Source: a virus. From it: DNA of 42,191 bases. A program made the translations under genes and the position numbers. Below are positions 968 to 15,960 of the stretch, one piece after another. The stretch's first letter is position 1. The number at the start of each line of letters is the position of its first letter. Location of the stretch: the UHGV virus genome UHGV-0210215. The stretch is one strand, 5' to 3'. A model generated the notes under the pieces. The model saw nothing but the letters and a program-made list of their open reading frames with translations. It was not told where the DNA came from and ran no database searches.

Positions 968-1832
968 CTTCTAAGAACCTCCTTAAATCTTCATCAGTCA
1001 CTTTTGGCTTGTTGCTAGCATAGTTCACTGGCTCCTTTGCCCAATCTGGCAGTTGTTCTTGTCGAGCATACGATCGTGCCTGCTTCTTAGGTGTTTGCTT
1101 ATCCTTTCTCGCCCAAGCTCTTATGGTTGCTAGATAATTTTTGTAAGTCTTACCAGACAGCTCACAGTATTCAGAAACTCGATCGATTCGTTGCTCCCAA
1201 TCGTTTGGAAACTCTTCTTTGAGTTTTTCAAGTTGTTCATCATTCAAAAGAACATTTTTATATTCACCGTATTTGTGGCGAGGCGAAGTTTTCTTCTTTT
1301 TCTTTGTTTCTTTTTCTTTATCTATTTCTCTCTCTTTATCTATTTCTTTATCTATATCTACTTCTTTATCTATATCTGTACCGTCACGTGACGTCACGCT
1401 AACGTCACGACTAGCCTCGAGTAATTCTTGCTTTTTACGCTCACGGTATTTCCTGTTTCTCTCAGCATTCTTTAGCCTAACTTGCTCCATTCCTTCAATA
1501 TTCTGATGCTTTTCCCAGTTGCTAATAGCAATCAAGCCATCATTGTTAAGATCAATCATGTTGAAACCAGCAAGAGTTTTGAGTGCTAGTCTTACTGTGT
1601 TAACATTCTTTCCAAATAGAGTTGCTAACATTTCTTCTGTGTAGGGCATATTCCTTTGTATATAGATCAAGCCATCGTCATTGGTCTTACCTGCTAGCAC
1701 TAGAAGTCTTATCCATATGACCAAGATTGCATCTGACTCAGGAACAGCTTGGATTAACCTTATTTTTTCATCGTCAAACATTGTCGTCTTAAGCTTGATC
1801 CAACTAATTTCTGCCAACTCCTTACCCTCCAA
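942..1832 (-). CDS. phage replisome organiser / DnaD-domain replication initiation protein
   Basis: N-terminus (W.KL...FDDEKI.LI...P..D...VIW..LL.LAGK.N..G) matches the replisome-organiser N-terminal region. An acidic and basic repeat linker (EIDKE x n) is encoded by DNA iterons. A DnaD-like C-terminus follows. Confidence 0.6.
   Translation of the reverse strand: MEGKELAEISWIKLKTTMFDDEKIRLIQAVPESDAILVIWIRLLVLAGKTNDDGLIYIQRNMPYTEEMLATLFGKNVNTVRLALKTLAGFNMIDLNNDGLIAISNWEKHQNIEGMEQVRLKNAERNRKYRERKKQELLEASRDVSVTSRDGTDIDKEVDIDKEIDKEREIDKEKETKKKKKTSPRHKYGEYKNVLLNDEQLEKLKEEFPNDWEQRIDRVSEYCELSGKTYKNYLATIRAWARKDKQTPKKQARSYARQEQLPDWAKEPVNYASNKPKVTDEDLRRFLEDVGDTEGF
1290..1425. repeat. tandem iterons (TTTATCTAT x5 with 13-18 bp period) plus a GTCACG x3 / CACGTGACGTCACG palindrome inside the replisome-organiser gene: candidate phage ori
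   Basis: Read directly in the sequence at 1296-1425. Confidence 0.5.
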
Positions 1833-2499
1833 TCCTTAATTTTATGATTTCATCCTGTTTCAATTTGATGCCTATAACGTGATACTTCTTCTTAAACTCA
1901 GTAATCCCCATTTGATGCTTCTCGGTATGATGGGTTCTGCAAAGTGCTGCAAAAGTAAATTCTGTGTGATCAACTTCTTTCCGCTTACGCCTTCCTAGGG
2001 CTTTTTCAAAGTGATCGATGTCAGCGTTCTTTTTACCGCAAATGCAGCAGGTTCGATTCATTACACATTTATAAAAGAAATACTGAATGTTTTGTGGTGG
2101 AACCTCGTATCCATCTTTGAAAGGAATATCTCCATCGAAGATAAAGTCGAGTATCAAATCAGCCAGCAAAGATACATCATCCACTGTATTCGTGGAAATA
2201 TTTTTCAAACTAATATTTTTGCCTGTTAAAAACCGAAATTGCCAGTAAAATATATTTTTTAAGTCGTCAAATGGTTGTCCAGTGTATCTGTAAATATCAT
2301 TCATGAGAGAAAACACAAACGCTCTCTGCTCGACTGTGAACCCTCGTGGATCTTTGATGAATATTTCCGCTTGTCGCTCGCCGTCATATCCATCAAATAT
2401 TGTTTTGAGACGCGCGATATTTAGTTCATCTTTGAGTTCTAGCGTCAGGCGATTGCCTTCAACTTTTATTATTTTTGCTAGATACGAAAGATTGTTCAT
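1822..2499 (-). CDS. phage protein with a C-terminal HNH-type zinc-finger nuclease motif
   Basis: C-terminus CCICGKKNADIDHFE...CRTHHTEKH fits C-x2-C...DH...C..HH..H. The N-terminal 150 aa are unassigned. Confidence 0.4.
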   Translation of the reverse strand: MNNLSYLAKIIKVEGNRLTLELKDELNIARLKTIFDGYDGERQAEIFIKDPRGFTVEQRAFVFSLMNDIYRYTGQPFDDLKNIFYWQFRFLTGKNISLKNISTNTVDDVSLLADLILDFIFDGDIPFKDGYEVPPQNIQYFFYKCVMNRTCCICGKKNADIDHFEKALGRRKRKEVDHTEFTFAALCRTHHTEKHQMGITEFKKKYHVIGIKLKQDEIIKLRIGG

Positions 2500-3435
2500 T
2501 TACATCACTTCCACTTTGATTCCTTCACCAGTAATAAATTTGTTTAATGCTGTTAGTTGCTCATGCGTTCCTGTTAATCGCAGTTCAACTGTTTTAAACT
2601 CTTCAATTTCTTGACGTTGCAAATCTGGTGACTCCTCTAAAATCTCGCCTGTTTCTTGATCGATGACATTATTCTCAACTTGTCGCTCTTTGAGTTCTTT
2701 CATAGCTTGCTCATATTCAGCTTGGGCTTGCTGTTCCTTGAGTTCACGCTCTTCTCGTTCCCGTTTAGCAGCCACAGTTGCATCAATTTGCTTCATCAAG
2801 TCGGATGCGAATAATCCATTCTCGATCTGCACTACCCACGATTCTGGCTCAAGTCCTACTGCTTTAGCATAGTTGCCAATGATAGCTTTATCATTTTCAA
2901 TTCGTTTGTTTTCTGCAGCGATTTGTTTCATTTGGAATGTGATTTCTTCGAGTGTTTTCTTGTTCAATTCACCTTTTGTAGTAAAATTCCCTTTGTTTAA
3001 CCATGCTGGTTTAATCTCCAACTCGTTCGCATCAATCTCGTAGTTTGGTGCAATTTCTTCGATCGTTGCTTTCAGTTTTTCAAATCGTTTGTCCTTTTCA
3101 GACTCTTCAAAAGAAGAAATACTTTCGTTGATGCCGTCGCTAACAAGTTTGATTTGATTCGTATAACCATTGATCTTATTTTCAAAATCTTTTAAAGGCT
3201 TGCTGTATTCTTTCTTAACCGCTTTGCGTTGGTCGTCCAGCAACTTGGCAATTTTATTCAAATCTGCTTTAGCTTGCTTCGCTTCTGGAATATTGTCGTC
3301 AGTGAAAACCAAAGTTCCATAACGAGCGATAGTCGCATCCACCAACTCTTTCAGCTTGGCTTCATTGTTGATCGTGATTTGGCTTGGCGTGAAATCTACG
3401 TTAAATTCAAGTTGAGTAGTTAAATCGGTCGTCAT
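2500..3435 (-). CDS. DUF1351-like phage protein (coiled coil), partner of the ERF recombination module
   Basis: Start moved to the ATG that forms an ATGA overlap with the erf stop. The Glu/Lys-rich coiled-coil C-terminus and the position next to ERF are typical of this family. Confidence 0.45.
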   Translation of the reverse strand: MTTDLTTQLEFNVDFTPSQITINNEAKLKELVDATIARYGTLVFTDDNIPEAKQAKADLNKIAKLLDDQRKAVKKEYSKPLKDFENKINGYTNQIKLVSDGINESISSFEESEKDKRFEKLKATIEEIAPNYEIDANELEIKPAWLNKGNFTTKGELNKKTLEEITFQMKQIAAENKRIENDKAIIGNYAKAVGLEPESWVVQIENGLFASDLMKQIDATVAAKREREERELKEQQAQAEYEQAMKELKERQVENNVIDQETGEILEESPDLQRQEIEEFKTVELRLTGTHEQLTALNKFITGEGIKVEVM

Positions 3436-4160
3436 TGCGCATTCCCCCAATTGATATCATTTTGCTTTTGTTCAGCAGACTTGCTTTCTTGTGCGTTCTT
3501 TTCATAGCTCTGCTTCCACTTAATGAGTTGAGCCATAGCGCTACTGAATAGATTCACTGGCAATTGATCAAGAGAAGGAACCTTTGCTGCTTCAGCCAAT
3601 TTATTTTGGATTATTGATAGCTCAGCGCCAGCCAATTCAGCGACTTTTCTGGCTTCGTCATTCAAAGCAGCCAGCTGTTTTCCGTCAATCAGCTTAGGCG
3701 GCTGGATAGATTCTTGTTTTCTTTGGAATGAATCTGGATCGTCTTTGTCTGTAGCAATGTTGAAAAACTTCAGTAAGAAATATTTTTCACCGTAAGTTAA
3801 TGCTTTCCCTACACCTTTTTCGCCAGCGATATCAACACCTTGTGCGTACCAAGCGCTATCAACAAAATCTTCTTTATCATCGATGTTCTGCCAACGCATA
3901 TTCATTTCTAATTCAGTAAAATAAGTTGCTCGTTCTTTCTGGTTATCTTCACTTCCAATTAGCTCAACTCGTTCATTGAGTTTGTGATTAGTGATGGAAG
4001 GAATTAATAAAAGCCCAGCATCGTTGATAGCACTGTGTAACGCCCCTAACACATCACTAGATCCCACATATTTGAACTGATTACCAGATTTCTCTTTCTT
4101 CAGATAAGAAATCGACTTTCTGACTTCTGCTAAACGCTGGTATACATTTTTTTCATTCAC
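3432..4160 (-). CDS. erf: ERF-family single-strand annealing recombinase
   Basis: N-terminus VYQRLAEVRKSISYLKKEKSGNQFKYVGSSDVLGAL matches the ERF signature (VYQKLAEV...FKY...DVL). Size 242 aa. Confidence 0.65.
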   Translation of the reverse strand: MNEKNVYQRLAEVRKSISYLKKEKSGNQFKYVGSSDVLGALHSAINDAGLLLIPSITNHKLNERVELIGSEDNQKERATYFTELEMNMRWQNIDDKEDFVDSAWYAQGVDIAGEKGVGKALTYGEKYFLLKFFNIATDKDDPDSFQRKQESIQPPKLIDGKQLAALNDEARKVAELAGAELSIIQNKLAEAAKVPSLDQLPVNLFSSAMAQLIKWKQSYEKNAQESKSAEQKQNDINWGNAQ

Positions 4161-4492
4161 TTAAACTCCCCCTGTCTTTGTCCCAACCACTCTGCACCGC
4201 TAACAATTTTTAAAGCATTCATCATTAGCGATTCAGGTCCGTATTCATCAATTAGTTTCAAGAAGTTTTCTTCCTGAACAACAAATTTAGCCATAGTGCC
4301 GTTGCTGTTTTCTCGATATCCGATAAACATCCAATCCGATTCATGAACAATCGTTCCGTTATCGTCCTCATTCCAATGCGCTGACAGGTCTACTTCTTCC
4401 TCGTTATTGTCTAAAGAATGGATATTAGGCATCACATGACTGCTTTCGTCTTGCAGCAGGTTGTCGTAATTTGTTGCGATATAATCTGACAT
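4157..4492 (-). CDS. hypothetical acidic early protein (111 aa)
   Basis: ORF coupled by overlap to erf. Confidence 0.4.
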   Translation of the reverse strand: MSDYIATNYDNLLQDESSHVMPNIHSLDNNEEEVDLSAHWNEDDNGTIVHESDWMFIGYRENSNGTMAKFVVQEENFLKLIDEYGPESLMMNALKIVSGAEWLGQRQGEFK

Positions 4493-4551
4493 CTTCCCAC
4501 TCCTCTCGATTTGTGGTAAACTTAGGTAAATATTTTTTCGTTTCTGACTGA

Positions 4552-4680
4552 CTATAGCTTGCCGGCTAGTCGGTCTTTTTGTCGTTCAATATTCTGTCTT
4601 GATTGAATCAACGGCTTGTTGTGCTTATACCAGCGATCAGCAATGATTTTGCCGATACGTAGCGCTTCTGCTCTAGTCAT
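4552..4680 (-). CDS. small basic protein, 42 aa (MTRAEALRIGKIIADRWYKHNK...)
   Basis: Below the ORF-track size cutoff. GGGGG ribosome-binding site 9 nt upstream. Sits next to two further mini-ORFs on the same strand. Confidence 0.3.
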   Translation of the reverse strand: MTRAEALRIGKIIADRWYKHNKPLIQSRQNIERQKDRLAGKL

Positions 4681-4681
4681 A

Positions 4682-4819
4682 CTACTTAACCCCCATGATC
4701 CAAATCAGTGTTAACAAAAGTACGATGTTTAAACCAATGCTCAAATATGAAATCGCTTGGAGTTGGCGTGCTTTGTATAAGTGATTTCTATTTAGACTTG
4801 CTAACCATTTTTTCTTCAT
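4682..4819 (-). CDS. small membrane protein, 45 aa, with a C-terminal TM helix
   Basis: GAGGAG ribosome-binding site. Its start overlaps the stop of the upstream mini-ORF (ATGA). Confidence 0.3.
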   Translation of the reverse strand: MKKKWLASLNRNHLYKARQLQAISYLSIGLNIVLLLTLIWIMGVK

Positions 4820-4938
4820 GCTGACTCCTCCTTGAAATATCGATCGATCAAAGCGAGCGCTTCTTCTTTTGTTGAAACGGTATGCTGCATTGTCGATCCG
4901 CTATCTTCCTCAACTGATATAGTGATTGATTTAATCAT
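4816..4938 (-). CDS. small acidic protein, 40 aa
   Basis: AAGGAG ribosome-binding site 8 nt upstream. Its stop overlaps the next start. Confidence 0.3.
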   Translation of the reverse strand: MIKSITISVEEDSGSTMQHTVSTKEEALALIDRYFKEESA

Positions 4939-4970
4939 TTCCCCAACTCCTTTTAAGTTAAGTGTTTCTG

Positions 4971-5408
4971 TCAATAATACTCGTCTTCTTTTTTTTCGAT
5001 TTTTACATCTGCACTAAAGTTGTAGTTATAGTCAAATGAGTTCACTGCGCCTTGAACAAAAGCAGTCACAAGTGCAGATTTATTTTCTTCTTTTTCCATT
5101 TCACGTTTAACAACCGATTTAAGCAACTCTCTGTTTTCATCCAAGTACTCGTTAATAGCCTCTTTTGCAGCGGCTTGTACGATTTTTTTAACATGTATAT
5201 CTAAAAACGAATACTTGTTATCACTGCTGTATCGACTAACTTCACCACGATCATCAACCTTTTCATTGAGAGCGTTATTGATCAACGCAGACATAAAGTC
5301 TTCCTTGTTACCCATTGCAGTGATAATTGATTGATTCAATGTTTCTTTAAAGATTGTTTGGATTACTTCCTCATTGATTTCTAAATTCATATTTGCTAAA
5401 TTTGCCAT
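4971..5408 (-). CDS. hypothetical early protein (145 aa)
   Basis: ORF with a ribosome-binding site and good coding periodicity. Confidence 0.45.
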   Translation of the reverse strand: MANLANMNLEINEEVIQTIFKETLNQSIITAMGNKEDFMSALINNALNEKVDDRGEVSRYSSDNKYSFLDIHVKKIVQAAAKEAINEYLDENRELLKSVVKREMEKEENKSALVTAFVQGAVNSFDYNYNFSADVKIEKKEDEYY

Positions 5409-5427
5409 TCGTTTTCCCTCCTGATTT

Positions 5428-5859
5428 TTATTTATTAATTTCTTGCACTTTTTGATCCGTATACTGCCTTAACTCGCTCACACGCTGTTCTAGCTGTTCC
5501 TTGTCGTTTTGCACCGTGTTCAGTTGTTGGCGCAAGCTATCGGCTTCCTGTTGCTTTGTAGCGATCTCTTGTTGCTTTTGTTCGATCTCTCGTTGCTTGG
5601 CTTCAATTTCCTTTTGCTTGTCCGATTTGATTTGCTCAATTTCGGCTTTCAGCTGCTCCTGTGTGCGAGTGTTGTTGGATAGCTGTGATTCGAGTTCTGA
5701 CACACGCTGCGATTTCGTTTGGCCGTATTGTAGGACTGTGTTGAAGTTTGCCTTGATCGTGTCTAAGTCCTGAAATGCGTTGCTTGCTGCGTAGCCGATA
5801 ACTCCACTACCTAGTGCTAGTCCGATGATTGCTGTTGTTTTTGCTAGTTTGTTTTTCAT
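5428..5859 (-). CDS. membrane-anchored coiled-coil protein (N-terminal signal anchor, Gln/Glu/Lys heptad repeats)
   Basis: MKNKLAKTTAIIGLALGSGVIGYAAS hydrophobic N-terminus followed by (KQxEIE)n repeats. Confidence 0.45.
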   Translation of the reverse strand: MKNKLAKTTAIIGLALGSGVIGYAASNAFQDLDTIKANFNTVLQYGQTKSQRVSELESQLSNNTRTQEQLKAEIEQIKSDKQKEIEAKQREIEQKQQEIATKQQEADSLRQQLNTVQNDKEQLEQRVSELRQYTDQKVQEINK

Positions 5860-5945
5860 TGTGATTTCTCCTTTTCATCTTTTTATTTGTGTCAATATTC
5901 AAAAGAATTGTACCTAAGCTTAGAGTGATTGAAATTAAAGAAATT

Positions 5946-5978
5946 ATTGTCACCAAATGACATCCTCCTTTGATATAA
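5946..5978 (+). promoter_or_regulatory. extended -10 promoter (TGATATAAT at 5970-5978) driving the opposite-strand gene 6004-6516
   Basis: TGnTATAAT read in the sequence. GAGGTG ribosome-binding site at 5992. Confidence 0.45.
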
Positions 5979-6003
5979 TTATTTTTGAAAGCGAGGTGAG
6001 AAA

Positions 6004-6516
6004 ATGGAAATGTTGACTCCAACAGTAATAATCGCCGTCATTGCGTTAATATCGCCGGTTATCACGAATTATTTAAACAATATCCACATGGAAAAAATGA
6101 AATTTTTAGAATATCAATTGATGATGAAAAAAGATAAGTTTCAACAGAATAAAAATTTGGCAGAAAATTATATTCGCTCTACTATTGAAGTGATCCATTT
6201 ATTAAATGCTGGATTTGGTTATGCAATTCAATTGGGCAGAGATTTAAATCAAACATTATGGTTCCAAAGAGAAATAATTGACTATGAAGCATATCTATCA
6301 GCGCTAAAGATTTATAAAGAAAATCATTCAGTTTTATTAGCGGTTTCTTCAAAAAAACTTGCCGAAAAACTAATTGAATTTGATGCTACTTTATATGACA
6401 GAAAGAGTTTCAATAGAAATTTATTCCCTGATTTCGAAATTGTATTGGATGAAATACAATTAGAAATTAATAGAAATGAACCAAAGTATGATGAGTACCG
6501 ACCAAAGAAAATATAG
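6004..6516 (+). CDS. single-pass membrane protein (170 aa), encoded on the opposite strand inside the early operon: moron-like
   Basis: Own promoter and ribosome-binding site. N-terminal TM helix (TVIIAVIALISPVITNYL). Very AT-rich relative to the flanking genes. Confidence 0.55.
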   Translation: MEMLTPTVIIAVIALISPVITNYLNNIHMEKMKFLEYQLMMKKDKFQQNKNLAENYIRSTIEVIHLLNAGFGYAIQLGRDLNQTLWFQREIIDYEAYLSALKIYKENHSVLLAVSSKKLAEKLIEFDATLYDRKSFNRNLFPDFEIVLDEIQLEINRNEPKYDEYRPKKI

Positions 6517-6633
6517 AAGTGGGTATTTAGAATGTTTGATCATATATATGTTCCCTGAGATTGCTAGTATCATTATTAGTATTAGTGTAATGACTTTTAT
6601 CACCCTAGCCCCTCCTTCCGTGTGGGGTTATTT

Positions 6634-7326
6634 TTAATCCAATAGATCCATTTGGCGGACGATCGTTTTTGTTGCTGTGCTTGGCTCCCAATCTGTGATG
6701 TAATCAAGTACCTTCTGGAAGTGTTTCTGCCGTAACTGAGTTCTTGTACTCACACCTGTGATTTTCTTGACTCCTGAGTTGATGTCCTTGTGTAGCTCTC
6801 CTCGTTGGCTGTTAGTGACTTTACCGAAACCTCGTGCTACTTCTGCTACTCGCTGATTGATGCGGCGTGTGATGTAGCCGTAGTCTCCGGCACTTAGGAC
6901 TGTGTTTTCTTCAAGATCAGTGACACGTTTCTCTACTTTGGCAACTTTCTCCTTTGTGCCTTTTTGAAATTCAAACATGAGTTCCAGTGCTTCTTCTGGT
7001 GTTTCTGGAATCTTAAGCGCTTGCTCCTTGATGTGTGATTCCATTTCGTTGAAGCGTTCGATATAGCTTAAGGCGAATTGTGTTCCCTTGGCTCCTGTCA
7101 TTCTGGTTGCGTATAACTCGCAGCCTTTTTTCGTTAGTAGGTAGTTTGGTAAGCTTCTGCCTGTTGAATCTTCATAAGTTGATTCAATAAATAAATCGCT
7201 CGCCACACTTTTGTGGTCAGTCAGATGATCGATTATCTTAGCGATATCTCTTAAAACTTGGTCATGCCGTCGGTCTACCATTACTGCCACTTCATTGCTA
7301 GTTAATGTTTTTTCGATTGTTTGCAT
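6634..7326 (-). CDS. phage regulatory protein Rha / anti-repressor
   Basis: N-terminus NEVAVMVDRRHDQVLRDIAKII matches the pRha domain signature (EVA..FGKRHDNVLRDI). Confidence 0.6.
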   Translation of the reverse strand: MQTIEKTLTSNEVAVMVDRRHDQVLRDIAKIIDHLTDHKSVASDLFIESTYEDSTGRSLPNYLLTKKGCELYATRMTGAKGTQFALSYIERFNEMESHIKEQALKIPETPEEALELMFEFQKGTKEKVAKVEKRVTDLEENTVLSAGDYGYITRRINQRVAEVARGFGKVTNSQRGELHKDINSGVKKITGVSTRTQLRQKHFQKVLDYITDWEPSTATKTIVRQMDLLD

Positions 7327-7340
7327 TAGTGCTCCTCCTT

Positions 7341-7661
7341 TTATTTAAGAATTTCTCCGAAGTTTTCTTCTAAAAATTCTAATGTTTTTGATTTCAAAAA
7401 AAGATACTTGTCGTTGCCATCCCCTGGGTAATACACAAACCCTTCAGATGATTTTGAAATGTCGATTCTATTTCTATATCTAGGATTTTTTAAAACTTTC
7501 TGACTAAACCAATCATATTTTCTATTTATGCGATCAAGTACTTCTTTTAGCGTCATCCACCGACCTAAACTATCCGCTTGAAGCAACTCCTCGTACTCAA
7601 CCTTAGAAATGATCACATAATCTTCAGGTACAGGTATCTTTGCTTCCAAAAATTGTTGCAC
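7341..7661 (-). CDS. hypothetical early protein (106 aa)
   Basis: First ORF downstream of cro. Confidence 0.4.
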   Translation of the reverse strand: MQQFLEAKIPVPEDYVIISKVEYEELLQADSLGRWMTLKEVLDRINRKYDWFSQKVLKNPRYRNRIDISKSSEGFVYYPGDGNDKYLFLKSKTLEFLEENFGEILK

Positions 7662-7758
7662 GGGATCACTCTCCTATCATTAATTACATATTTAAAAAAT
7701 ATGGTAATTACCACTTGCGTAATTTTTAATTACGTTTTATAATAAAAAAAGAAAGTTG

Positions 7759-7968
7759 TTAGTTCGAAAAATCATTTTCCCATAACTTTTCGAATGATGT
7801 TTCAAGCAATAAAGTTAGGTTGATCGCTAATTTAAAGCTTGGGTCTACTCTGTTGGCTTCAATATTTCTGATGGTCGTTTCTGTTACACCAGACATTTCA
7901 GCTAATTTGCGCTGAGTGAGAGATTTAGATTTACGTGCCTCTTTAAAAGGCAATCTAGGGTTACACAT
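7759..7968 (-). CDS. cro: Cro-like XRE-family HTH regulator
   Basis: HTH motif LTQRKLAEMSGVTETTIRNIE. Start set at the second ATG, which has GAGGTGA 4 nt upstream. Divergent from cI. Confidence 0.65.
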   Translation of the reverse strand: MCNPRLPFKEARKSKSLTQRKLAEMSGVTETTIRNIEANRVDPSFKLAINLTLLLETSFEKLWENDFSN

Positions 7969-7986
7969 TTTATCACCTCTATTCAT

Positions 7987-8094
7987 ATCAAATTTACGTA
8001 ACTGCCAATTACACTTTTGATTATAAATGGTAAATGATAATTACGCAACCCTTTTCTTTATTTTTTCGTTAAAAATAACTGAGAGGAGATTATT
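7987..8094. promoter_or_regulatory. cI-cro intergenic switch region with AATTACG/CGTAATT operator-like half-sites (TTACGTAA palindrome at 7994-8001)
   Basis: The same half-site recurs downstream of cro at 7703-7733 (GTAATTAC; CGTAATTtttAATTACG). Confidence 0.45.
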
Positions 8095-8421
8095 ATGAGT
8101 ACATTTGCATTGAGATTAAAGGAATTAAGATCGAATAAAAAAATGTCACAAAAAGAACTTGCTGACTTTTTAGGGATGAAAAGAGAGAATATATCTAATT
8201 ATGAACGAGGTACAGTTACTAAAATACCAAGTGATGTATTAGAGAAACTGTCATCGCTATTTGGTGTTTCGGTTGACTATTTGTTGGGTAGAGAAGACTT
8301 TGAGAGAAAATTAGGTGCCCACGGAGAGCTTTTAGCCGCTCATATTGATGATGATGTTTCGGAAGAAGATATGGATGATATTTTAAGATATATAGAATTT
8401 AGAAAGAATAATCCTTTATAA
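8095..8421 (+). CDS. CI-like XRE-family repressor
   Basis: HTH motif MSQKELADFLGMKRENISNYERG. Sits at the first position of the lysogeny operon. Confidence 0.7.
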   Translation: MSTFALRLKELRSNKKMSQKELADFLGMKRENISNYERGTVTKIPSDVLEKLSSLFGVSVDYLLGREDFERKLGAHGELLAAHIDDDVSEEDMDDILRYIEFRKNNPL

Positions 8422-8435
8422 GATAAGCAGGTGGA

Positions 8436-8906
8436 ATGATGCAGGTTTATGAGGAATTAATGGCGAGTTATCCATATCTAGATTTCAAGTTTGACCCCTT
8501 AATGCCAGAAAAACACAAAGGTTTGATTATGGGCAAAACTGTTTATATAAATCCAAATCAGGAATATAAAGAATTAAATGTTACTGTGGCTGAAGAAATT
8601 GCACACTACTTAACTGGATCAGGGAATATAATTGCACAAGATTCAATTGAGAAACGTAAGCAAGAGCGATTAGCGAGAGATATAGGTGCTGCAATACTAG
8701 TAACACCTAAGGATATAATTGATTGCTTTGAAACTGGATGTAAAAGCGTTTGGGAATGTGCAGAACATTTGAATATTACTGACCAGGCATTCAAAGATGC
8801 TGTGAAATTCTATGCTAGGAAGTTTAGAGGGATTATGACAGAAGATAATCATATTATTATTTTTAGAGAAGACGGAACTGTAAGTGTATTTAAATCAGTT
8901 CAATAA
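8436..8906 (+). CDS. ImmA/IrrE-family metalloprotease (anti-repressor protease)
   Basis: HEXXH motif in AEEIAHYLTG. Directly downstream of the XRE repressor, the classic ImmR/ImmA pairing. Confidence 0.65.
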   Translation: MMQVYEELMASYPYLDFKFDPLMPEKHKGLIMGKTVYINPNQEYKELNVTVAEEIAHYLTGSGNIIAQDSIEKRKQERLARDIGAAILVTPKDIIDCFETGCKSVWECAEHLNITDQAFKDAVKFYARKFRGIMTEDNHIIIFREDGTVSVFKSVQ

Positions 8907-9006
8907 AAAAGCACGCTCCACTTTCGACGGGAGAGCGCGCAAAAACAAATAAACAGTAGGCTTATTTGGTCATGCCTATTGTATCAAAGTTGAGGAGTTG
9001 AATCAA

Positions 9007-10128
9007 TTGGCAGTAAGAAAGCGTGGCAAATCATGGCAATTTGAAATATCATATAAAAAAGCTACTGGTGAATATAGCAAAATAAGAAAAGGCGGCTTTA
9101 AAACCAAAGCTGAAGCCAAGGAAGCTGAAATAGAAATGTCTTACAACCTAGGCCGAGGATATCAGGCTGACAAAAATAGCCTTACGTTATATGATTTTTT
9201 CAAGAACTGGATAGAATTGTACAAAGAAAATTATGTATCTGAAATAACTTACAGGAAATATTTAAACACATTGAGTGCTATAAAAGAATTGTTTCCTTAT
9301 ACCACATTATCAAGCCTAGATAAAGCAAACTATCAAAAATCGTTGAATAATTACGCTAAAACACATGCCAGATCTACAACTGCTAAATTAAACAATCATA
9401 TAAAATCAGCGCTAGATGATGCGGTAGAACAAGGATTAGTTCTCAGGAACCCCACTTATAACGTAGTGATTAAAGGACTTCCTAGCAAGCCTACAGAGAA
9501 TAAATACCTTAACTACGACGAGTTTCAGGCACTAATGCAACTCTTAGAGACTCGAATAAATCCCACCTATGCATCCCCATTCTTGCTTTTCTTTGCTGGG
9601 GCAACAGGTATGCGATTAGCTGAGCTTATGGGATTAACATGGTCTGATATTGATTTTGATAATGGAATAGTAGATGTTAATAAGACGTGGCTTTATAAGT
9701 TAAACAAATTCGGACCAACTAAAAATCCATCATCGCTAAGAAAAATTCCGATCGACAACAAAACACTATCTATTCTAAAAAAATATAAAAGCGATCAGGA
9801 GCAACTTATTAGTAACATCGGTATTGATAATCCTAATAATTTTATTTTTTTCAATATTAAGAATGGACCGGTCTCACAAAACGCTGTAACAAAACAGTTA
9901 CGAGTAAGGTTAAAAGAACTTGGTATAGATAAGCCACTTAGCATACACGGCTTGCGCCATACACATGCTTCGGTGCTTTTATATAAAGGAGTAAACATAC
10001 TATCAGTTTCAAAAAGATTAGGACATGCTGATATCAACACAACTATGAAAACATATTTGCATACAATCAAAGAGTTAGAAGAAAAGGATAATACCGCTAT
10101 TAAAAACATTATGGAAAATATCTACTAA
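9007..10128 (+). CDS. int: tyrosine site-specific integrase
   Basis: C-terminal HGLRHTHAS...LGH...Y catalytic signature and an N-terminal arm-binding type domain. Start set at the in-frame TTG, 9 nt after GAGGAG. Confidence 0.8.
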   Translation: MAVRKRGKSWQFEISYKKATGEYSKIRKGGFKTKAEAKEAEIEMSYNLGRGYQADKNSLTLYDFFKNWIELYKENYVSEITYRKYLNTLSAIKELFPYTTLSSLDKANYQKSLNNYAKTHARSTTAKLNNHIKSALDDAVEQGLVLRNPTYNVVIKGLPSKPTENKYLNYDEFQALMQLLETRINPTYASPFLLFFAGATGMRLAELMGLTWSDIDFDNGIVDVNKTWLYKLNKFGPTKNPSSLRKIPIDNKTLSILKKYKSDQEQLISNIGIDNPNNFIFFNIKNGPVSQNAVTKQLRVRLKELGIDKPLSIHGLRHTHASVLLYKGVNILSVSKRLGHADINTTMKTYLHTIKELEEKDNTAIKNIMENIY

Positions 10129-10340
10129 CTATGTGCCAAATTCGTGCCAAATTTTCCCGATTGCTATCTTTTTCTAGCTAACTGATTATTAATATTAAAA
10201 GCAAAACGTCTCCCGCCGACCACAATCGAATGCTGTAATCGTTGGCAGGGAACGTTGAAAAGGCGCTTTAAACCCTTATATTATAGGGGTTTTTCTTATT
10301 TTGTGCCAAACATGTGCCAAATGTTTAGCCTGTATCCAAT
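10129..10340. other. candidate attP: two pairs of GTGCCAAA arm-type repeats (10133-10155 and 10303-10326) flanking a ~145-bp core region
   Basis: TGTGCCAAAttcGTGCCAAAT and TGTGCCAAAcatGTGCCAAAT read in the sequence immediately 3' of int. Confidence 0.45.
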
Positions 10341-10442: not shown

Positions 10443-11006
10443 ATGAAAAAAATAGTTTTGTTGGGATTAGGGATAGTTTTTCTTTCCGGTTGTACATCTA
10501 ATAATAATGAGACGAGCAATTCTTCTTCACAAGAAAAAGATAGTGTTAGCACTTCTCACTCAGTTGCTTCTCCTGTTTCTGATTCATCTTCGGAATCTGA
10601 GGCTACAGGAGTTACTTTTGAAAACACTACTCTTACAACTCCTGAAGGTATATTTACTTTGACTGGATCTAAAAGTAATGAGAGTGAAGATGGAGACAAG
10701 TCTATTTTTGTTACTTTTGATTACGAAAATACAACTGAAGAAAATCAAAATTTGGAGTTTCTTATTTGGGATTATTTCGATGCAAAACAAATTTTTCCAG
10801 ATACAACAGAAACCTTAAGTCCATTAATGTATATGGATGACTTTGAATATTATGATTTGTACGATAAAACTCAAGTTGAAATTAACCCCGGTGCAACCGT
10901 TCAAGCCGGTTATGGATATCTACTTAAAGATGCTGATTATCCTTTAATTATTGATTTTAGTGAAGACCCTTCAACTCCAATAGGAAGAATAGAATACGAC
11001 TATTAA
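10443..11006 (+). CDS. lipoprotein (187 aa), moron at the attP-proximal end
   Basis: Signal peptide plus lipobox (LSGC) and a Ser-rich linker. Own extended -10 promoter (TGtTACAAT at 10402-10410). Confidence 0.6.
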   Translation: MKKIVLLGLGIVFLSGCTSNNNETSNSSSQEKDSVSTSHSVASPVSDSSSESEATGVTFENTTLTTPEGIFTLTGSKSNESEDGDKSIFVTFDYENTTEENQNLEFLIWDYFDAKQIFPDTTETLSPLMYMDDFEYYDLYDKTQVEINPGATVQAGYGYLLKDADYPLIIDFSEDPSTPIGRIEYDY

Positions 11007-11013
11007 AATTTCA

Positions 11014-11048
11014 AAGCTCCTACCTCTTTTGGTAGAGAGCTTTTTTTA
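11014..11048 (+). terminator. rho-independent terminator after the lipoprotein gene
   Basis: GCTCCTACC....GGTAGAGAGC stem followed by T7. Confidence 0.55.
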
Positions 11049-11060
11049 TCTTCTGTTCGC

Positions 11061-11089
11061 TTTACAAAACGAACGTAAGTTCGTATACT
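11061..11089 (+). promoter_or_regulatory. SOS promoter: -35 TTTACA, 17-nt spacer holding a perfect Cheo/LexA box CGAACGTAAGTTCG (11070-11083), -10 TATACT
   Basis: Read in the sequence. Firmicute LexA consensus is CGAACnnnnGTTCG. Confidence 0.65.
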
Positions 11090-11110
11090 TTCCGTAAGGA
11101 GTGAGCTATT

Positions 11111-12475
11111 ATGGGAAGTTTTCGATACGAACTTGAGCCCAAACGTGACATTCTTTTTATTGATGTAAAATCATTTTATGCTTCAGTCGAATGCGTTCAA
11201 CGTGGATTTCATCCGCTCAAAACAATGCTAGTTGTCATGTCTCAATCGGATAATACAGGAAACGGACTGGTTCTTGCTGCTTCTCCATTGGCAAAAAAGA
11301 AATTGGGAATCTCAAACGTTACTCGTGCTGATAATTTACCGAACCATCCGCTCCTATTCAAGGTCCCTCCACGCATGAACTTATATATAAAAGAAAATCT
11401 GAAAGTAAACAATGTATTTAGAAAATATGTAGCCGATGAGGACCTACTCCTCTACTCTATTGATGAATCTATGATGGACGTAACTAAATCACTGAACTTG
11501 TTTGTCCCAGACAAAAGCTTATCTCGAAGCGAAAGACGATGGCGATTAGCTAAGATGATTCAGCGTGATGTATATGACACGACGATGCTCTATGTGACAG
11601 TAGGAATTGGCGATAATCCATTGCTCGCTAAGTTAGCATTAGACAACGAGTCAAAGCATAATAAATCTTTGATCGCCGAGTGGACCTATCAGGATGTAGA
11701 AAGTAAAGTTTGGAACATCTCTCCTATCACAGAATTCTGGGGCATTGGATCACGTACGAAAAAGCGTTTAGAGCGCATGGGAATAGAAACGATTGAGCAA
11801 CTTGCGAAGGCTAATCCCGATTTGTTGCGAAGTAGAATGGGGATCATAGGAGAACAGTTATACCATCATGCGAATGGAATTGATCGGACGATTATTTCTG
11901 AGCCAGCTCCTCAGACAAGAGATAAAAGTTATGGAAATAGTCAAGTGCTAAACAGGAATTATTATTTACAAGATGAAATCGAAATTGTTGTTAAAGAGAT
12001 GGCGGAACAGGTTGCTGCACGTATTCGCAGACATCACTGCCAAACTTCTTGTGTTTCCATTTACATTGGTGTTGCTTTTGGAGAAACACAAAAAGGGTTC
12101 TCACGACAGATGACGGTCCCACCTACTGATAACACAAAGAAGCTAGTTGAACATTGTCTTTTTTTATTTCGTAAATATTATACTGGTCAAGTCGTCCGTC
12201 ATGTAGGTATCACCTATTCAAAGTTAATTTACACATCAAGTATTCAGCTTGATTTATTTGCTGATGCTGAGGATCAGATAAAGCAAATGAAGCTAGACAA
12301 GATCATTGATAAGATAAGAGAAAAGTATGGATTTACTTCTATTGTTCATGCTAATAGCAAACTTGAAGGCGCTCGTGCGATTGCTCGGAGCAAATTGGTG
12401 GGCGGTCATGCCGGCGGCATGGATGGAATTTCGAATGAAGGGACTGATAAAAATAAACATCATAAGTCAATATGA
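11111..12475 (+). CDS. Y-family translesion DNA polymerase (UmuC/DinB/ImpB-like)
   Basis: N-terminus ILFIDVKSFYASVE with DESMMDV and VTVGIGDNPLLAKLA motifs typical of Y-family polymerases. 454 aa. Confidence 0.75.
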   Translation: MGSFRYELEPKRDILFIDVKSFYASVECVQRGFHPLKTMLVVMSQSDNTGNGLVLAASPLAKKKLGISNVTRADNLPNHPLLFKVPPRMNLYIKENLKVNNVFRKYVADEDLLLYSIDESMMDVTKSLNLFVPDKSLSRSERRWRLAKMIQRDVYDTTMLYVTVGIGDNPLLAKLALDNESKHNKSLIAEWTYQDVESKVWNISPITEFWGIGSRTKKRLERMGIETIEQLAKANPDLLRSRMGIIGEQLYHHANGIDRTIISEPAPQTRDKSYGNSQVLNRNYYLQDEIEIVVKEMAEQVAARIRRHHCQTSCVSIYIGVAFGETQKGFSRQMTVPPTDNTKKLVEHCLFLFRKYYTGQVVRHVGITYSKLIYTSSIQLDLFADAEDQIKQMKLDKIIDKIREKYGFTSIVHANSKLEGARAIARSKLVGGHAGGMDGISNEGTDKNKHHKSI

Positions 12476-12639
12476 GCAGAGGTATATTTCTTATTCAGAG
12501 TTTGTACAGGAATTTCCTGATAGTATATCTGAATCTCAAGAGTGCGTTTTTGGAACTCGTTGCGTAGAGTTTTATGTAGGCATGACTTTAGGAAAAACAA
12601 ATACTAGATATTTTATACAACCATATGGAGGCGATCACC

Positions 12640-12909
12640 ATGAAATCATTGAAAGGTGTAGTTTCGAAAATACGAGTGTTGAAGATGTCGAGGACCCCTT
12701 TGGTGCGTTTCTCACTTGACAATACAAATTGTCTGATTGCTGCACACAGTCTCAACTTTTTAGCAGATGTGGACGAAGGAATGCGGATAGTAGTTGCTGG
12801 TGAGTTTAACGATCGTAAGCAGTTTGTTGTGAAAAAATATTCGGTGATTGGCAAGACGAAGATTATGATTGAATTTGAATCGATAAAAAAGCAAAGTTTT
12901 TTAAAATAG
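12640..12909 (+). CDS. small protein (89 aa) downstream of the polymerase, possibly a YolD-like accessory factor
   Basis: GGAGG ribosome-binding site 8 nt upstream. No terminator between it and the polymerase gene. The position mirrors B. subtilis Y-polymerase/YolD-like pairs. No sequence motif was recognised. Confidence 0.4.
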   Translation: MKSLKGVVSKIRVLKMSRTPLVRFSLDNTNCLIAAHSLNFLADVDEGMRIVVAGEFNDRKQFVVKKYSVIGKTKIMIEFESIKKQSFLK

Positions 12910-12978
12910 CAAATTAAAAAACTGTTTTTGTGGTAAAATCGATTTATATTATTTTATTACGAATAAGGAGTGCTTTTT

Positions 12979-13461
12979 TTGAATGTTCTAGGTATAAGAG
13001 TTGAACCGAAAATAATCCACTATACAATTGTTTTTGATAATAATGAATTTACAGTAGATAAGTTATATGTTCCTATAAATATAGGTGTGCCAAGAAGACT
13101 ATCCTATATTCGCTCTAATTTACTTTCAATAGTTAAAGAAAATAAAATTTCTAAAATAGGTTTACGTGTTGTCGAACCCAATGCGGATATGAAAAACATT
13201 TCAAATCTTGCTACCCGCATAAACATTGAAGGAGTCATTCAAGAATTAATGTGCGACTGCAACATATCTGATTACCGCACTTATATTAAATCACAAATAG
13301 CAAGTTCCTTAAATTTAGAACGGAATATTATTAATGATTATTTAGAAGATACATCTATTTCTGCTCCTCTTAACATAGGGCTTGATGATTGGAATACTTA
13401 TTCTAAAAACCAGAAAGAGAGCATAATTATAGCGTTTAGTGTGAGAGGTATTGAAAAATGA
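12979..13461 (+). CDS. hypothetical protein (160 aa) translationally coupled to the kinase
   Basis: AAGGAG 8 nt upstream of an in-frame TTG. Its stop overlaps the kinase ATG (ATGA). Very AT-rich. No recognisable domain. Confidence 0.45.
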   Translation: MNVLGIRVEPKIIHYTIVFDNNEFTVDKLYVPINIGVPRRLSYIRSNLLSIVKENKISKIGLRVVEPNADMKNISNLATRINIEGVIQELMCDCNISDYRTYIKSQIASSLNLERNIINDYLEDTSISAPLNIGLDDWNTYSKNQKESIIIAFSVRGIEK

Positions 13462-14528
13462 GCGATAGCATTTTATTCGATAACATATATAATACAACCA
13501 TTCGAATTGAAGAAATAGAATCTCTTTCCCCAGAGACCCAAGGGAAAAATTCCACTGTTTTCATAGGAAAAGATCTTCAGATGGGTAAAAAATTCTTAAT
13601 AAAAAAAATTAATATAAAAAATTTAAGAAAATCGACTAGCGATATTTTTGAAGAAGCAAAGATTTTAGCCAATTCCATGCATAGAAATATAATGCCCCTT
13701 CAATATTCTTCTTATGATGAAGAGTATATATATATGGCAATTCCATATTTTAAAAACGGATCATTGAATGAATATATCAATAAATTTACCACGAATCAAA
13801 AAATGATTGAATATTGTTTAGATTTTTTAAGCGGTCTTGCACATGCTCACATTTTAGGAATCTTGCATTTGGATATTAAACCGAGTAACATAGTTATTGA
13901 TGATTCAGACAGAGCTCTTTTAACAGATTTTGGTCAAAGTCATTTACTTGGAGATGATGAATCAGTTGCTTTTACCAAACCAATATATTTACGTAATTTC
14001 ACTCCAAATATATTGGTTAAAAAAGAAGTTTGTGTCGATGATGATATATATCAAGTAGGCCTTATGATTTATAGAATTTTTAACGATTTTTACTACCAAG
14101 AGAGTTTAAATGATTTAGAAAAAATTGTTAATCAAGATCAATTTATAAAATATATTCTTGAACGAAAATTCCCTAATAATAACTTTATGCCAAACGTACC
14201 AAACAAGATTAGGAGTATTATAAAAAAATGCTTGGGTAGAGCGAACGATTCTTATAATTCAGTTATCGAAGTAATGAATGATTTGTCTCGAGTTGACAAA
14301 CAACTCCATGTGGGATATGAATATCACAAAGAATCTCAAACTATTAAATGGAGAAAACTTACAGAAACTGCTATAATTAATATAGAAATAGATTTAAATT
14401 CTAATAATGTTATAGCTAAAAGGGAGAATATTGCTTCAGGAAATATACGAAATGTAACAAAACTAAATAAATCTTTTAACTCACGAAAAGATGCATTTGA
14501 AGCTATTAAAAGTCATTTAGAGGAGTGA
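13458..14528 (+). CDS. eukaryotic-like (Hanks-type) Ser/Thr protein kinase, 356 aa
   Basis: Kinase subdomain motifs present: FLIKK (beta3 Lys), EEAKIL..HRNIMPL (alphaC then an HPNIV-like segment), catalytic loop HLDIKPSNIVID, DFG as LTDFGQS, subdomain IX DIYQVGLMIY. Confidence 0.7.
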   Translation: MSDSILFDNIYNTTIRIEEIESLSPETQGKNSTVFIGKDLQMGKKFLIKKINIKNLRKSTSDIFEEAKILANSMHRNIMPLQYSSYDEEYIYMAIPYFKNGSLNEYINKFTTNQKMIEYCLDFLSGLAHAHILGILHLDIKPSNIVIDDSDRALLTDFGQSHLLGDDESVAFTKPIYLRNFTPNILVKKEVCVDDDIYQVGLMIYRIFNDFYYQESLNDLEKIVNQDQFIKYILERKFPNNNFMPNVPNKIRSIIKKCLGRANDSYNSVIEVMNDLSRVDKQLHVGYEYHKESQTIKWRKLTETAIINIEIDLNSNNVIAKRENIASGNIRNVTKLNKSFNSRKDAFEAIKSHLEE

Positions 14529-14534
14529 TTATAT

Positions 14535-14702
14535 ATGATGTTAAAACCTAATCAAACTTTGACTAGAAGTAGACAAGCATCTCACAAAAAAGCCGCATCT
14601 GCCAAACCAAAAAAATACTCTCAAAAAGAAATTGAAGATGTTCTCAAGCAAACTGAGCTTTTAAGAATTGACGATAGATACTCATTTCTTATAAAGAAAT
14701 AA
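14535..14702 (+). CDS. Lys-rich small protein (55 aa), last gene of the kinase cassette
   Basis: GAGGAG 9 nt upstream, immediately after the kinase stop. Below the ORF-track size cutoff. Confidence 0.35.
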   Translation: MMLKPNQTLTRSRQASHKKAASAKPKKYSQKEIEDVLKQTELLRIDDRYSFLIKK

Positions 14703-14714
14703 AGTCTTAAAGAT

Positions 14715-14757
14715 TAAAACTCCTCTTACTCTATTATGAGAAAGAGGAGTTTTAATC
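14715..14757. terminator. bidirectional hairpin terminator (13-bp stem TAAAACTCCTCTT/AAGAGGAGTTTTA)
   Basis: U-rich tracts on both sides. Closes the kinase cassette. Confidence 0.5.
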
Positions 14758-14864
14758 TTTCATTAAATCAAGACAAAATATATTTCTAATCCCTGAAAAT
14801 TATTTATGACGATTTTCTAATCAATAATATCTATTACATTGAAATAATGCTAAAATAAAAAATC

Positions 14865-14914
14865 GAAGAGTATTAGGCGCACTTCCCCAAGTTTTCACCG
14901 CCTAACTACTCTTC
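14865..14914 (-). terminator. strong rho-independent terminator for the late operon (15-bp stem with one bulge, then GATTTTTTATTTT on the minus strand)
   Basis: GAAGAGTATTAGGCG...CGCCTAACTACTCTTC. Confidence 0.5.
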
Positions 14915-14991
14915 ATAAAATATTGCACGCACCTACTAATTTATAGTATAAACTTATTTACTGCAAGTAAAATGAATATGATCTATGTACA

Positions 14992-15015
14992 AGCCCGCTG
15001 AAGCGGGCTATTTGT
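14992..15015. terminator. GC hairpin AGCCCGC-tgaa-GCGGGCT directly after the endolysin stop
   Basis: Read in the sequence. A T-rich tract follows on the plus strand. Acts as the first of two tandem terminators for the late operon. Confidence 0.4.
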
Positions 15016-15960
15016 TTACCACGGAAGCTTGTTGTTGTTTAATGCTACTTGCAATGCTTTGACCATATTAGACACAGGGCTGATAAATCCATCCACTGTT
15101 GTCTTCAAGGCTCGTTGCATAGCTTTAATCATTTCTGTACCGCATAGTCCATCGATCACACCATTGTATAAACCTTTTGCTTTCAACCGTTTCTGCCATG
15201 TTCGAATCAGCGTTGATCCTTTAAGTGTATTATCGAATTGCGCCGCATAAAGGTTCTTGTTGCACGCTTGCCGGTATTGGTGACTGATTTCATCATCTGG
15301 AGTGATACCTTCGTACTTCATGGCTTTATTGGCAGTACTTGGACCAAACATGCCATCTTCTGCGATTTTATTGGTACTTGGTTTTGCAGATGGCATACTC
15401 GGTTTAGCTGCTGAATTGGAACCGCTAATCTTGCCAAACACCGCATCTTTGAACCGTTCTAGCTCACTTGGTTTTGCTACCCATGGAGCTGGGCAATTCT
15501 TGCCAGTAACATCATAATGTCGCCAAATCTTATTTCGAGTTATATTTGGATATTTTGCGATCAGTTCTTTGACAGCTTTAACGGTATTCTGGAATGTTTT
15601 CTCAGTGATATTTCCGTTTTTATCCAAGCACATCTCCACGCCGATAGCACCATAATTAGCGTTACCAATTTGCGAGTACAGTGGCTTGTAGATAGAACCA
15701 TCTGAATTGTATTTAACCGTATCGTTTGCATGATAAGCTACTTCGTCTAACGGAATGATACAAATAGCTTCATTGTCATCCACAAACAAATGAGCGGATG
15801 CATAAACGCCATTAAGATTATTGAAATAATCTTTGTGATTGCGAGCGGTACCTCCGTTGTTAGCCGTGTAATGCATGATGATGCCTTTGATTCCGTAGTT
15901 CTTGATTCCTGGACGAGAAAACTTATTGATTCTGATATATTCGTATTTGATGAAACTCAT
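15016..15960 (-). CDS. endolysin: N-acetylmuramoyl-L-alanine amidase (Amidase_2/PGRP) with a C-terminal peptidoglycan-binding domain
   Basis: HYTAN...ASAHLFVDD...AYHAN...GIGVEMC zinc-amidase motifs. C-terminal repeats resemble PG_binding_1. Confidence 0.8.
   Translation of the reverse strand: MSFIKYEYIRINKFSRPGIKNYGIKGIIMHYTANNGGTARNHKDYFNNLNGVYASAHLFVDDNEAICIIPLDEVAYHANDTVKYNSDGSIYKPLYSQIGNANYGAIGVEMCLDKNGNITEKTFQNTVKAVKELIAKYPNITRNKIWRHYDVTGKNCPAPWVAKPSELERFKDAVFGKISGSNSAAKPSMPSAKPSTNKIAEDGMFGPSTANKAMKYEGITPDDEISHQYRQACNKNLYAAQFDNTLKGSTLIRTWQKRLKAKGLYNGVIDGLCGTEMIKAMQRALKTTVDGFISPVSNMVKALQVALNNNKLPW

Follow-up and report, generated by a model that had tools for sequence, protein, structure and literature searches.

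A mobile three-gene kinase cassette in a temperate Enterococcus phage is homologous to the stk locus of phage 933W and probably serves superinfection defence

The viral genome UHGV-0210215, a stretch of 42,191 bp that was analysed as a whole and is referred to here as the window, is, as read from its gene content, the complete and circularly permuted genome of a temperate Enterococcus siphophage. It carries a cassette of three coupled plus-strand genes (12979–13461, 13458–14528 and 14535–14702), termed the trio, which encode a RuvC-like protein of 160 amino acids (aa), a Hanks-type Ser/Thr kinase of 356 aa and a basic peptide of 55 aa (open reading frame 55, ORF55). We consider it fairly probable that the cassette constitutes a three-gene superinfection-defence (abortive infection) module of the 933W Stk type, which is carried as lysogen-expressed cargo and produces a latent kinase complex. 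Direct support comes from homology to the stk locus of phage 933W, the fixed arrangement of the genes, evidence of cassette mobility, the genomic surroundings, the intact kinase site and the altered RuvC site. An initial annotation of the same DNA had proposed a candidate undescribed kinase-based defence system and, while defence by abortive infection remains the best reading, the word undescribed overstates the case because the whole locus is homologous to 933W stk and is a Gram-positive member of the Stk family. The kinase itself is of a known kind; what seems new is the fixed architecture, in which two always-present partners accompany Stk in a conserved multi-phylum module, and a RuvC fold with a charge-reversed centre.

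The cassette and its immediate signals are arranged as follows.

12910–12978, plus strand: intergenic cassette leader, with a candidate extended -10 promoter TGgTAAAAT (12931–12939) and a ribosome-binding site AAGGAG (12965–12970)
12979–13461, plus strand: 160-aa RuvC-fold partner, homologue of 933W ST933Wp23/L0083 and of phi24B 'res'
13458–14528, plus strand: 356-aa Hanks-type kinase of the 933W Stk family, with a kinase domain at residues ~28–265 and an extra domain at ~276–356
14535–14702, plus strand: 55-aa basic peptide (ORF55), third gene of the operon, with LTR at residues 9–11
14712–14760, both strands: predicted bidirectional terminator hairpin, -33.1 kcal/mol, z -8.6 on the plus and z -7.4 on the minus strand
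12705–14855: recently exchanged block, 100% identical in nucleotide (nt) sequence to a different Enterococcus prophage backbone (L030)

The three ORFs, their ATGA coupling, the TTG start and the kinase motif set are present as initially described, on a direct reading of the sequence and the PknB alignment, and the closing bidirectional hairpin and the AT-richness of the trio were also borne out. The first ORF starts with TTG at 12979, 8 nt after AAGGAG; an alternative GTG at 12970 overlaps the ribosome-binding site. Its stop codon overlaps the kinase start within ATGA (13458–13461), and ORF55 begins with ATG at 14535, 8 nt after GAGGAG. The GC content of the trio is 0.288 compared with 0.381 for the window; no other 1.7-kb stretch of the window has so low a value, which is about 3.3 standard deviations below the mean. 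None of 200 shuffled sequences folded as stably as the hairpin at 14712–14760, which could terminate in both directions, since an A-tract precedes and a U-tract follows its GC-rich core stem. The cassette had been described as terminator-bounded, which applies to its 3' end, but no convincing terminator was detected upstream, where 12905–12985 folds with z -1.75, and read-through from the upstream polymerase operon is therefore possible. Its start had been placed at 12640, which takes in an 89-aa ORF (12640–12909) that is conserved in the Enterococcus gallinarum phage EG-TP1; since that phage lacks the trio, the ORF was assigned to the flanking backbone and rejected as a part of the module. 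Ratios of nonsynonymous to synonymous substitution (dN/dS) are 0.10–0.15 for the RuvC-like gene, 0.17 for the kinase gene and 0.17–0.31 for ORF55 (0.31 and 0.17 against two relatives). By this measure all three genes are under purifying selection, and ORF55 can therefore be treated as a real gene.

Evidence for the nature of the cassette also comes from its relationship to phage 933W. The 160-aa partner and the kinase were each compared by tblastn with 50,697 GenBank phage records. The partner matched 41 of these, from 933W-like Shiga toxin (Stx) phages and from two SPbeta-like phages of Bacillus; in every annotated record a kinase gene, which is stk in the Stx phages, adjoins the match. The kinase also matched 41 records, with an organism-name breakdown identical to that of the partner and with all 933W-like phages included. 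The window partner is 31% identical to 933W ST933Wp23/L0083 (E 1e-19), with all family-invariant residues in common, and the kinase and Stk share 33% identity along 316 residues (BLASTP, residues 15–322; E 8e-46), the C-terminal extension included. In 933W the gene order is cI, a DUF3024 protein, the RuvC-like gene (153 aa), an overlapping stk (348 aa), a 54-aa ORF and the tM terminator; SPbetaL7 carries the same trio, and the phi24B gene 'res' corresponds, by tblastn match, to the RuvC-like partner. The initial statement that the partner proteins match nothing that can be named is thus superseded for the 160-aa protein, and 933W Stk, first invoked as an analogy, proves to belong to a locus that is homologous throughout (kinase 33%, partner 31%, same gene order).

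The window cassette resembles the 933W and phi24B loci in gene order, in protein sizes (160/356/55 aa compared with 153/348/54 aa), in stop/start coupling and in forming prophage cargo that is followed by a terminator. They differ in host phylum, the window phage belonging to Enterococcus of the Bacillota, and in location, because the stk trio lies inside the immunity operon behind cI whereas the window trio is free-standing with its own leader at the slot between attP and lysin. Moreover, the DUF3024/PDC-S43 gene of 933W has no counterpart beside the window trio, the peptide sequences show no significant similarity, and the window kinase has lost a Glu/Arg pair (see below) that Stk keeps. Among 5,426 complete Escherichia coli genomes, 225 contain the 933W-type trio, and in these RefSeq labels both partners 'hypothetical protein'. 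The DUF3024 protein ST933Wp24 (L006 3592–3933), encoded between cI and the RuvC-like gene and cotranscribed with cI and the stk trio, matches PDC-S43, a PADLOC candidate for phage defence (E 4.4e-41), such that two defence units may stand one behind the other in the 933W immunity operon.

Functional information derives from the E. coli phages. The 933W kinase is cotranscribed with cI and aborts superinfection by HK97 (PMC3564112; PMC8008677); it shows little activity in uninfected cells (PMC3681748) and its activation is reported to need a specific infecting phage (PMC3681748; PMC8008677). In phi24B neither stk nor 'res' is induced by norfloxacin or prophage induction (PMC4651098), while Riley et al. 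2012 observed by 2D-PAGE two proteins, P2 and P3, which follow the expression pattern of cI and are probably driven from pRM or pRE (PMC3342100). A literature search found no role for either Stk partner, in a scope that did not extend to the primary 933W papers (Tyler & Friedman 2004; Friedman et al. 2011), and searches for a described system combining a kinase with a RuvC-like protein yielded nothing relevant.

The 356-aa protein matches Pfam Pkinase (E 1.3e-34) and PHROG 2361, which includes the stk genes of Stx phages (E 4.9e-77). In the PknB alignment it retains Lys49 of strand beta3, Glu66 of helix alphaC, the segment H137-L-D139-I-K141-P-S-N144, the D157-F-G motif and D196-IYQVG of subdomain IX, so that the active site is intact (Lys49, Glu66, Asp139, Asn144 and DFG being kept). 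Residues ~276–356 form a family-specific domain of four strands and a helix. At residues 182–184 of the window kinase the Glu of the APE motif is replaced by Asn (N184) and at ~264–266 the Arg of subdomain XI is replaced by Ser; aligned relatives, including 933W Stk, retain both residues, and the two changes look like the paired loss of a structural salt bridge. Elsewhere, the kinase gene is split or truncated in a Lachnospiraceae metagenome-assembled genome (L015 4471–5027) and in an IMG/VR contig (L059 3962–5000), with the RuvC-like gene and the small ORF intact at both, and this may represent decay of a costly, toxin-like gene.

The constancy of the architecture was assessed in two scans, one of genomes, with one genome per species and seeded solely with the RuvC-like motif, and one of IMG/VR viral contigs with the same seed. 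All 42 evaluable loci from the two scans, spread over five phyla, carry the kinase and a downstream ORF of 50–84 aa. The genome scan yielded a same-strand kinase gene directly downstream in 20/20 loci (one kinase disrupted) from Bacillota, Bacteroidota, Spirochaetota and Acidobacteriota, and the viral scan yielded 23 loci, with the kinase in 22/22 that could be evaluated (one split). A net-basic ORF of 50–84 aa lies 3' of the kinase in 27/27 and 22/22 related loci and starts at -25 to +97 nt relative to the kinase stop. Co-occurrence outside this phage, on which the initial annotation had placed weight, was thus found in every evaluable locus save two distant pairs that lack the small ORF. In these pairs, from Zoogloeaceae and one other metagenomic contig (L036, L039), kinase homologues of only 27–30% identity keep the upstream RuvC-like gene (E 6e-9 and 3e-17), and the core therefore consists of the RuvC-like protein and the kinase, the peptide being a feature of the main clade.

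Many chromosomal copies are located among defence genes. Type I restriction-modification (RM) genes lie beside the trio in Bacillus cereus (L004), Paenibacillus (L011), Planococcus (L014), Nemorincola (L017) and Pyrinomonadaceae (L026), and in the last three the trio follows type I genes (hsdR/M/S) on the same strand, with hsdS or hsdM directly before it (L014 74–3979, L017 964–3987, L026 506–1993); in L017 the RuvC-like ORF, if read from the earliest in-frame start codon, shares 8 nt with the end of hsdS. Other neighbours include a McrBC/LlaJI-like pair (L020), a C5 methylase (L024), an AAA_15/AAA_21 ATPase (L010), an HNH protein (L016), a DUF4145 protein (L025) and a HipA-like kinase gene (L026). 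The arrangement at L014, L017 and L026 recalls abortive-infection effectors that are embedded in type I RM loci, such as the anticodon nuclease PrrC of EcoprrI. There the likeness is one of arrangement, in that the trio follows hsdM/hsdS like a latent suicide module beside a type I RM system; there is no homology to PrrC, and the window trio has no RM neighbour.

The cassette also moves. The block 12705–14855 that is identical to the L030 prophage is bordered by flanks showing 6–56 mismatches per 100 nt, and L030 is unlike the window in its lysin (Amidase_5) and its tail genes. In phage EG-TP1 the small ORFs that flank the slot recur, as does the 3' end of the lysin gene, but two unrelated minus-strand cargo genes lie between them, in place of which the window carries 12891–14983, and phiEG37K has almost nothing at this slot. 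More distant trio copies (69–74% and 56–58% protein identity) are located at the same prophage end beside GH25, Amidase_5 or Amidase_2 lysins, where they directly abut chromosomal genes, and in prophages the trio adjoins five different kinds of lysin. We conclude that the cassette is a horizontally mobile kinase cargo unit at an attP–lysin hotspot. The alternative cargo of EG-TP1, gp33–gp34 (L028 4928–6335), encodes a membrane protein and a 320-aa 'SepS25B' protein, the pair giving no Pfam match, and could be another defence candidate.

The 160-aa partner has an RNase H-like RuvC fold with an altered catalytic site. Two-metal catalysis by RuvC needs Asp7 and Glu66. In the partner the RuvC motif GIDPG reads GIRVEP, with Arg7 in 99% of 134 diverse family representatives, and the last residue of strand beta-4, at the position of RuvC Glu66, is Arg in 75% and Lys in 25% of the family (Arg63 in the window protein). 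Of the RuvC carboxylates D7, E66, D138 and D141 only the last has a plausible counterpart, E147, and further near-invariant residues are Arg45, Glu66, Arg80, Glu84, Glu89 and Glu147. The register of R7 and R63 was taken from the GI-D/R motif, secondary-structure spacing and a weak hhalign match, not from a three-dimensional superposition; hhalign of the partner family against E. coli RuvC gave a 29-column alignment with 0.6% probability that places R63 opposite E66. Fourteen family members gave no Pfam match to RuvC or another nuclease family at E<=10, the 160-aa protein has no family match in Pfam, NCBIfam or PADLOC, and a sequence-profile search of the PDB yielded no RuvC, its sole match being a spurious RecQ fragment (E 0.019). 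The partner family is small and always single-domain, with 447 cluster representatives (E<=1e-3, among 1.84 billion proteins), each of ~150–165 aa. Assignment to DUF3010 (PF11215), a label that UniRef attaches to the homologue P0008 only, was rejected because the Pfam model matches 0/14 members at E<=10.

From these residues we infer that the partner is a pseudo-nuclease or, at least, has a non-canonical site. It is probably a regulator or sensor rather than a resolvase, because the first two catalytic carboxylates are replaced by Arg7 and Arg/Lys63. It differs from RuvC resolvases, including RuvC of the Lactococcus phage bIL67, in these substitutions, in giving no sequence-profile match and in its constant pairing with a kinase. 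A role as the phage's own resolvase was rejected on account of the altered catalytic site and a separate RusA gene; since RusA and ERF already provide the phage with a resolvase and a recombinase, a RuvC-like copy in the cargo is unneeded for phage recombination.

This bears on one alternative, that the RuvC-fold protein is a nuclease effector active through an unconventional site, with the kinase sensing infection or activating it and phosphorylation licensing cleavage of phage or host DNA. E66, E84, E89 and E147 are near-invariant across the 134 representatives, nuclease effectors are common in defence systems and the trio often adjoins RM systems. Nevertheless, positive charge stands in 99% (Arg7) and 100% (Arg/Lys at the end of beta-4) of proteins exactly where RuvC needs Asp7 and Glu66, there is no Pfam RuvC or nuclease match even at E 10, and the outcome reported for 933W is a phosphorylation-driven abortive infection.

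The third gene encodes a peptide with 14 K+R against 6 D+E. The peptides carry an N-terminal hydrophobic-[S/T]-Arg motif in which, as read off the alignment, Arg is present in 21/23 and Ser/Thr in 18/23, and a C-terminal DLGNGY..IKPI motif is common to many Firmicute members. The Spirochaete and Acidobacteria versions and one from Pedobacter are picked up by a profile of the Firmicute-type peptides, which misses those of Enterococcus, Bacteroidota and 933W (E 0.03–1). Homology of all the peptides is therefore unproven because significant relatedness reaches only a part of the set.

Among characterised relatives, the 933W kinase is the closest. The best defence profile for the window kinase is PADLOC mad6 (E 7.2e-33), whose match spans residues 28–352 and so extends beyond the kinase domain; mad6 belongs to the methylation-associated defence system (MADS), which comprises eight genes, and at several trio loci, too, methyltransferase or type I RM genes lie next to the cassette. 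Identity with MAD6 was nevertheless rejected: the NCBIfam MADS6 model gives 66.5 bits against a cut-off of 460, the window contains no other MADS genes, and the MAD6 profiles are ~610–660 positions long. The PADLOC PD-T4-6 profiles match the generic kinase core only (E 1.5e-23, 81 bits, compared with ~315–555 bits for family members, the training sequences included, under an in-house profile built from these kinases), as they do for 933W Stk, and the PD-T4-6 label has also been given to a gene present in all Streptococcus thermophilus genomes of one study (PMC11514479), a use that is not relevant to the trio. Staphylococcal Stk2 and E. coli PD-T4-6 likewise employ a Hanks-type kinase as an infection-activated abortive-infection effector; both are described as single genes, compared with three in the window. 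Stk2 was not among the 25 best PADLOC families listed for the window kinase. PADLOC v2 has no model for either partner gene, and defence-annotation tools would therefore call a generic kinase only or mislabel it PD-T4-6.

The cassette is placed within the phage genome as follows.

1–8000, minus strand: early and replication genes (replisome organiser, ERF recombinase, HNH protein, RusA)
7759–8906: cro / cI / ImmA switch
8998–10128: tyrosine integrase
10133–10322: attP-like region with four GTGCCAAA arm repeats
10443–14702, plus strand: cargo zone
14866–14915 (with a minus-strand U-tract) and 14992–15009, minus strand: two hairpins 3' of the lysin gene, z -2.6 and -2.7, context outside the trio
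15016–15960, minus strand: lysin, with late genes continuing on the minus strand to the window end

The trio lies between attP/integrase and the lysis genes and is convergent with the late operon, as first proposed, and the late operon ends in two hairpins, at ~14866–14915 and 14992–15009, which are predicted to terminate it. The nearest deposited phages are EG-TP1 and phiEG37K of E. gallinarum and phiFL3 of E. faecalis, with similarity that is patchy only. The four copies of GTGCCAAA occur as two pairs (10133–10152 and 10303–10322) around a terminator-like hairpin (10270–10292) just 3' of the integrase gene; they are probably the arm-type sites to which integrase binds and which define attP. 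Beyond attP, the first gene (10443–11006) encodes a DUF5067 lipoprotein with a lipobox signal peptide; its PHROG matches include Sie-like and Cor-like superinfection-exclusion families with weak E-values, and it may be a second, surface-acting exclusion gene of the cargo zone.

Upstream of the trio, at 11111–12475, lies a gene for a Y-family (UmuC/ImpB-like) DNA polymerase. A perfect Firmicute LexA (Cheo) box, CGAACGTAAGTTCG, at 11070–11083 is positioned between the -35 TTTACA and -10 TATACT elements of its promoter (11061–11089), and exact GAAC-N4-GTTC sites number two only in the window; the phage appears to carry as cargo a mutagenic polymerase that is under SOS control. Genes for a Y-family polymerase or YolD adjoin the trio in unrelated hosts, namely YolD in L005 (7787–8104) and an IMS polymerase in L021 (5932–7125), the hosts being Oceanobacillus, Clostridium carboxidivorans and the Enterococcus of the window phage. 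This recurrence could reflect a shared preference for a cargo slot or a functional link to DNA damage.

A working model of the 933W Stk type can be formulated from these data. In the lysogen, the three translationally coupled genes would be weakly expressed, through an AT-rich promoter of the cassette itself, by read-through of the LexA-boxed polymerase operon, or both. Lysogen expression is suggested indirectly by the convergence with the late genes, the separate leader and the predicted terminator, and by analogy with the E. coli homologues, which are lysogen-expressed. The kinase, the RuvC-fold subunit and the small basic peptide would then form a latent complex. Within it the RuvC-fold subunit, which is without canonical metal-binding carboxylates, would probably regulate or sense, responding to branched or foreign nucleic acid or to a phage protein, a resolvase role being unlikely, while the peptide with its L-[S/T]-R motif is probably a pseudosubstrate, a substrate or a labile inhibitor. 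An incoming heterologous phage would provide the trigger; the kinase would be released, would autophosphorylate, for which the conserved activation-loop Tyr177 is a candidate site, and would phosphorylate many host proteins, such that growth stops before the invader finishes its cycle. Defence by the Enterococcus trio, the three-protein complex and both partner roles are what we infer beyond the observations, and the partner roles are the weakest part of the model.

Several observations weigh against this interpretation. The defence phenotype is known from the E. coli homologue and from none of the Gram-positive members, to which it would extend by analogy. Friedman et al. in 2011 reportedly attributed HK97 exclusion to stk itself, which may mean that the kinase can do without its partners, at least under overexpression. 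The two distant pairs L036 and L039 lack the small ORF, and the likeness of ORF55 to the 933W and Bacteroidota peptides appears positional and compositional and is statistically non-significant. At L018, L019 and L036 the neighbours are housekeeping chromosomal genes, none defence-related. Furthermore, placing R7 and R63 at the catalytic positions depends on motif register, spacing and the weak hhalign match, not on superposition, and the near-invariant E66, E84, E89 and E147 could form an unconventional active site.

A more far-reaching version of the 933W-type reading is that kinases of the Stk type never stand alone but provide the catalytic core of a phylum-spanning three-component defence system in which both partners are required for triggering. 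The charge-reversed pseudo-RuvC would then sense recombination or replication intermediates of the phage, or read phosphate groups, and the peptide would act as a pseudosubstrate latch. A need for both partners would explain how the 933W kinase recognises an invader; we hold this version to be possible and rather doubtful.

Other explanations are unlikely to varying degrees. One is that the cassette is a toxin-antitoxin or addiction module, in which a kinase toxin restrained by the RuvC-fold protein, the peptide or both stabilises a prophage or island, with defence as a by-product of antitoxin decay at host shut-off. The small, tightly coupled and overlapping genes are of the kind expected, the cassette moves as a unit and is found in islands and prophages, 933W Stk is nearly inactive when untriggered (PMC3681748), and the HipA-like kinase gene beside L026 shows that such islands gather kinase toxins. 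However, a DNA-binding domain of the antitoxin type is absent from all three proteins, and activation in 933W is reportedly specific to the infecting phage, not a response to general shut-off. Moreover, conservation of the RuvC-like partner matches that of the kinase (dN/dS 0.10–0.15) and extends to eight near-invariant charged residues, which exceeds the need of a simple plug, and we judge this explanation to be unlikely. The nuclease effector considered above appears a little less likely still, given the charge reversal at its centre. Very unlikely is that the kinase serves its carrier phage, through lysogenic conversion or lytic takeover of the host as for T7 gp0.7, rather than acting against competitors: phage takeover kinases exist (T7; PMC8008677), the absence of a terminator between the LexA-boxed polymerase operon and the trio directly downstream makes SOS-linked expression possible, and polymerase or YolD genes recur beside it (L005, L021), but many members are chromosomal, outside phages and beside RM systems, the lytic cycle does not induce the homologues in phi24B, the trio is convergent with and insulated from the late operon, and the closest characterised relative acts against a heterologous phage. 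We allow only the slightest chance that neither the 933W-type module nor any of these three alternatives is correct.

The 933W Stk paradigm, known only from E. coli Stx phages, is hereby extended to enterococcal, Bacillus and gut-metagenome phages and to Bacteroidota, Spirochaetota and Acidobacteriota. The arginines in the RuvC metal site constitute a concrete and mutable hypothesis for how a defence kinase senses infection, and old questions, as to what activates Stk and what its neighbouring genes do, become testable. For phage therapy directed at Enterococcus, prophage cargo of this kind may narrow the host range of therapeutic phages.

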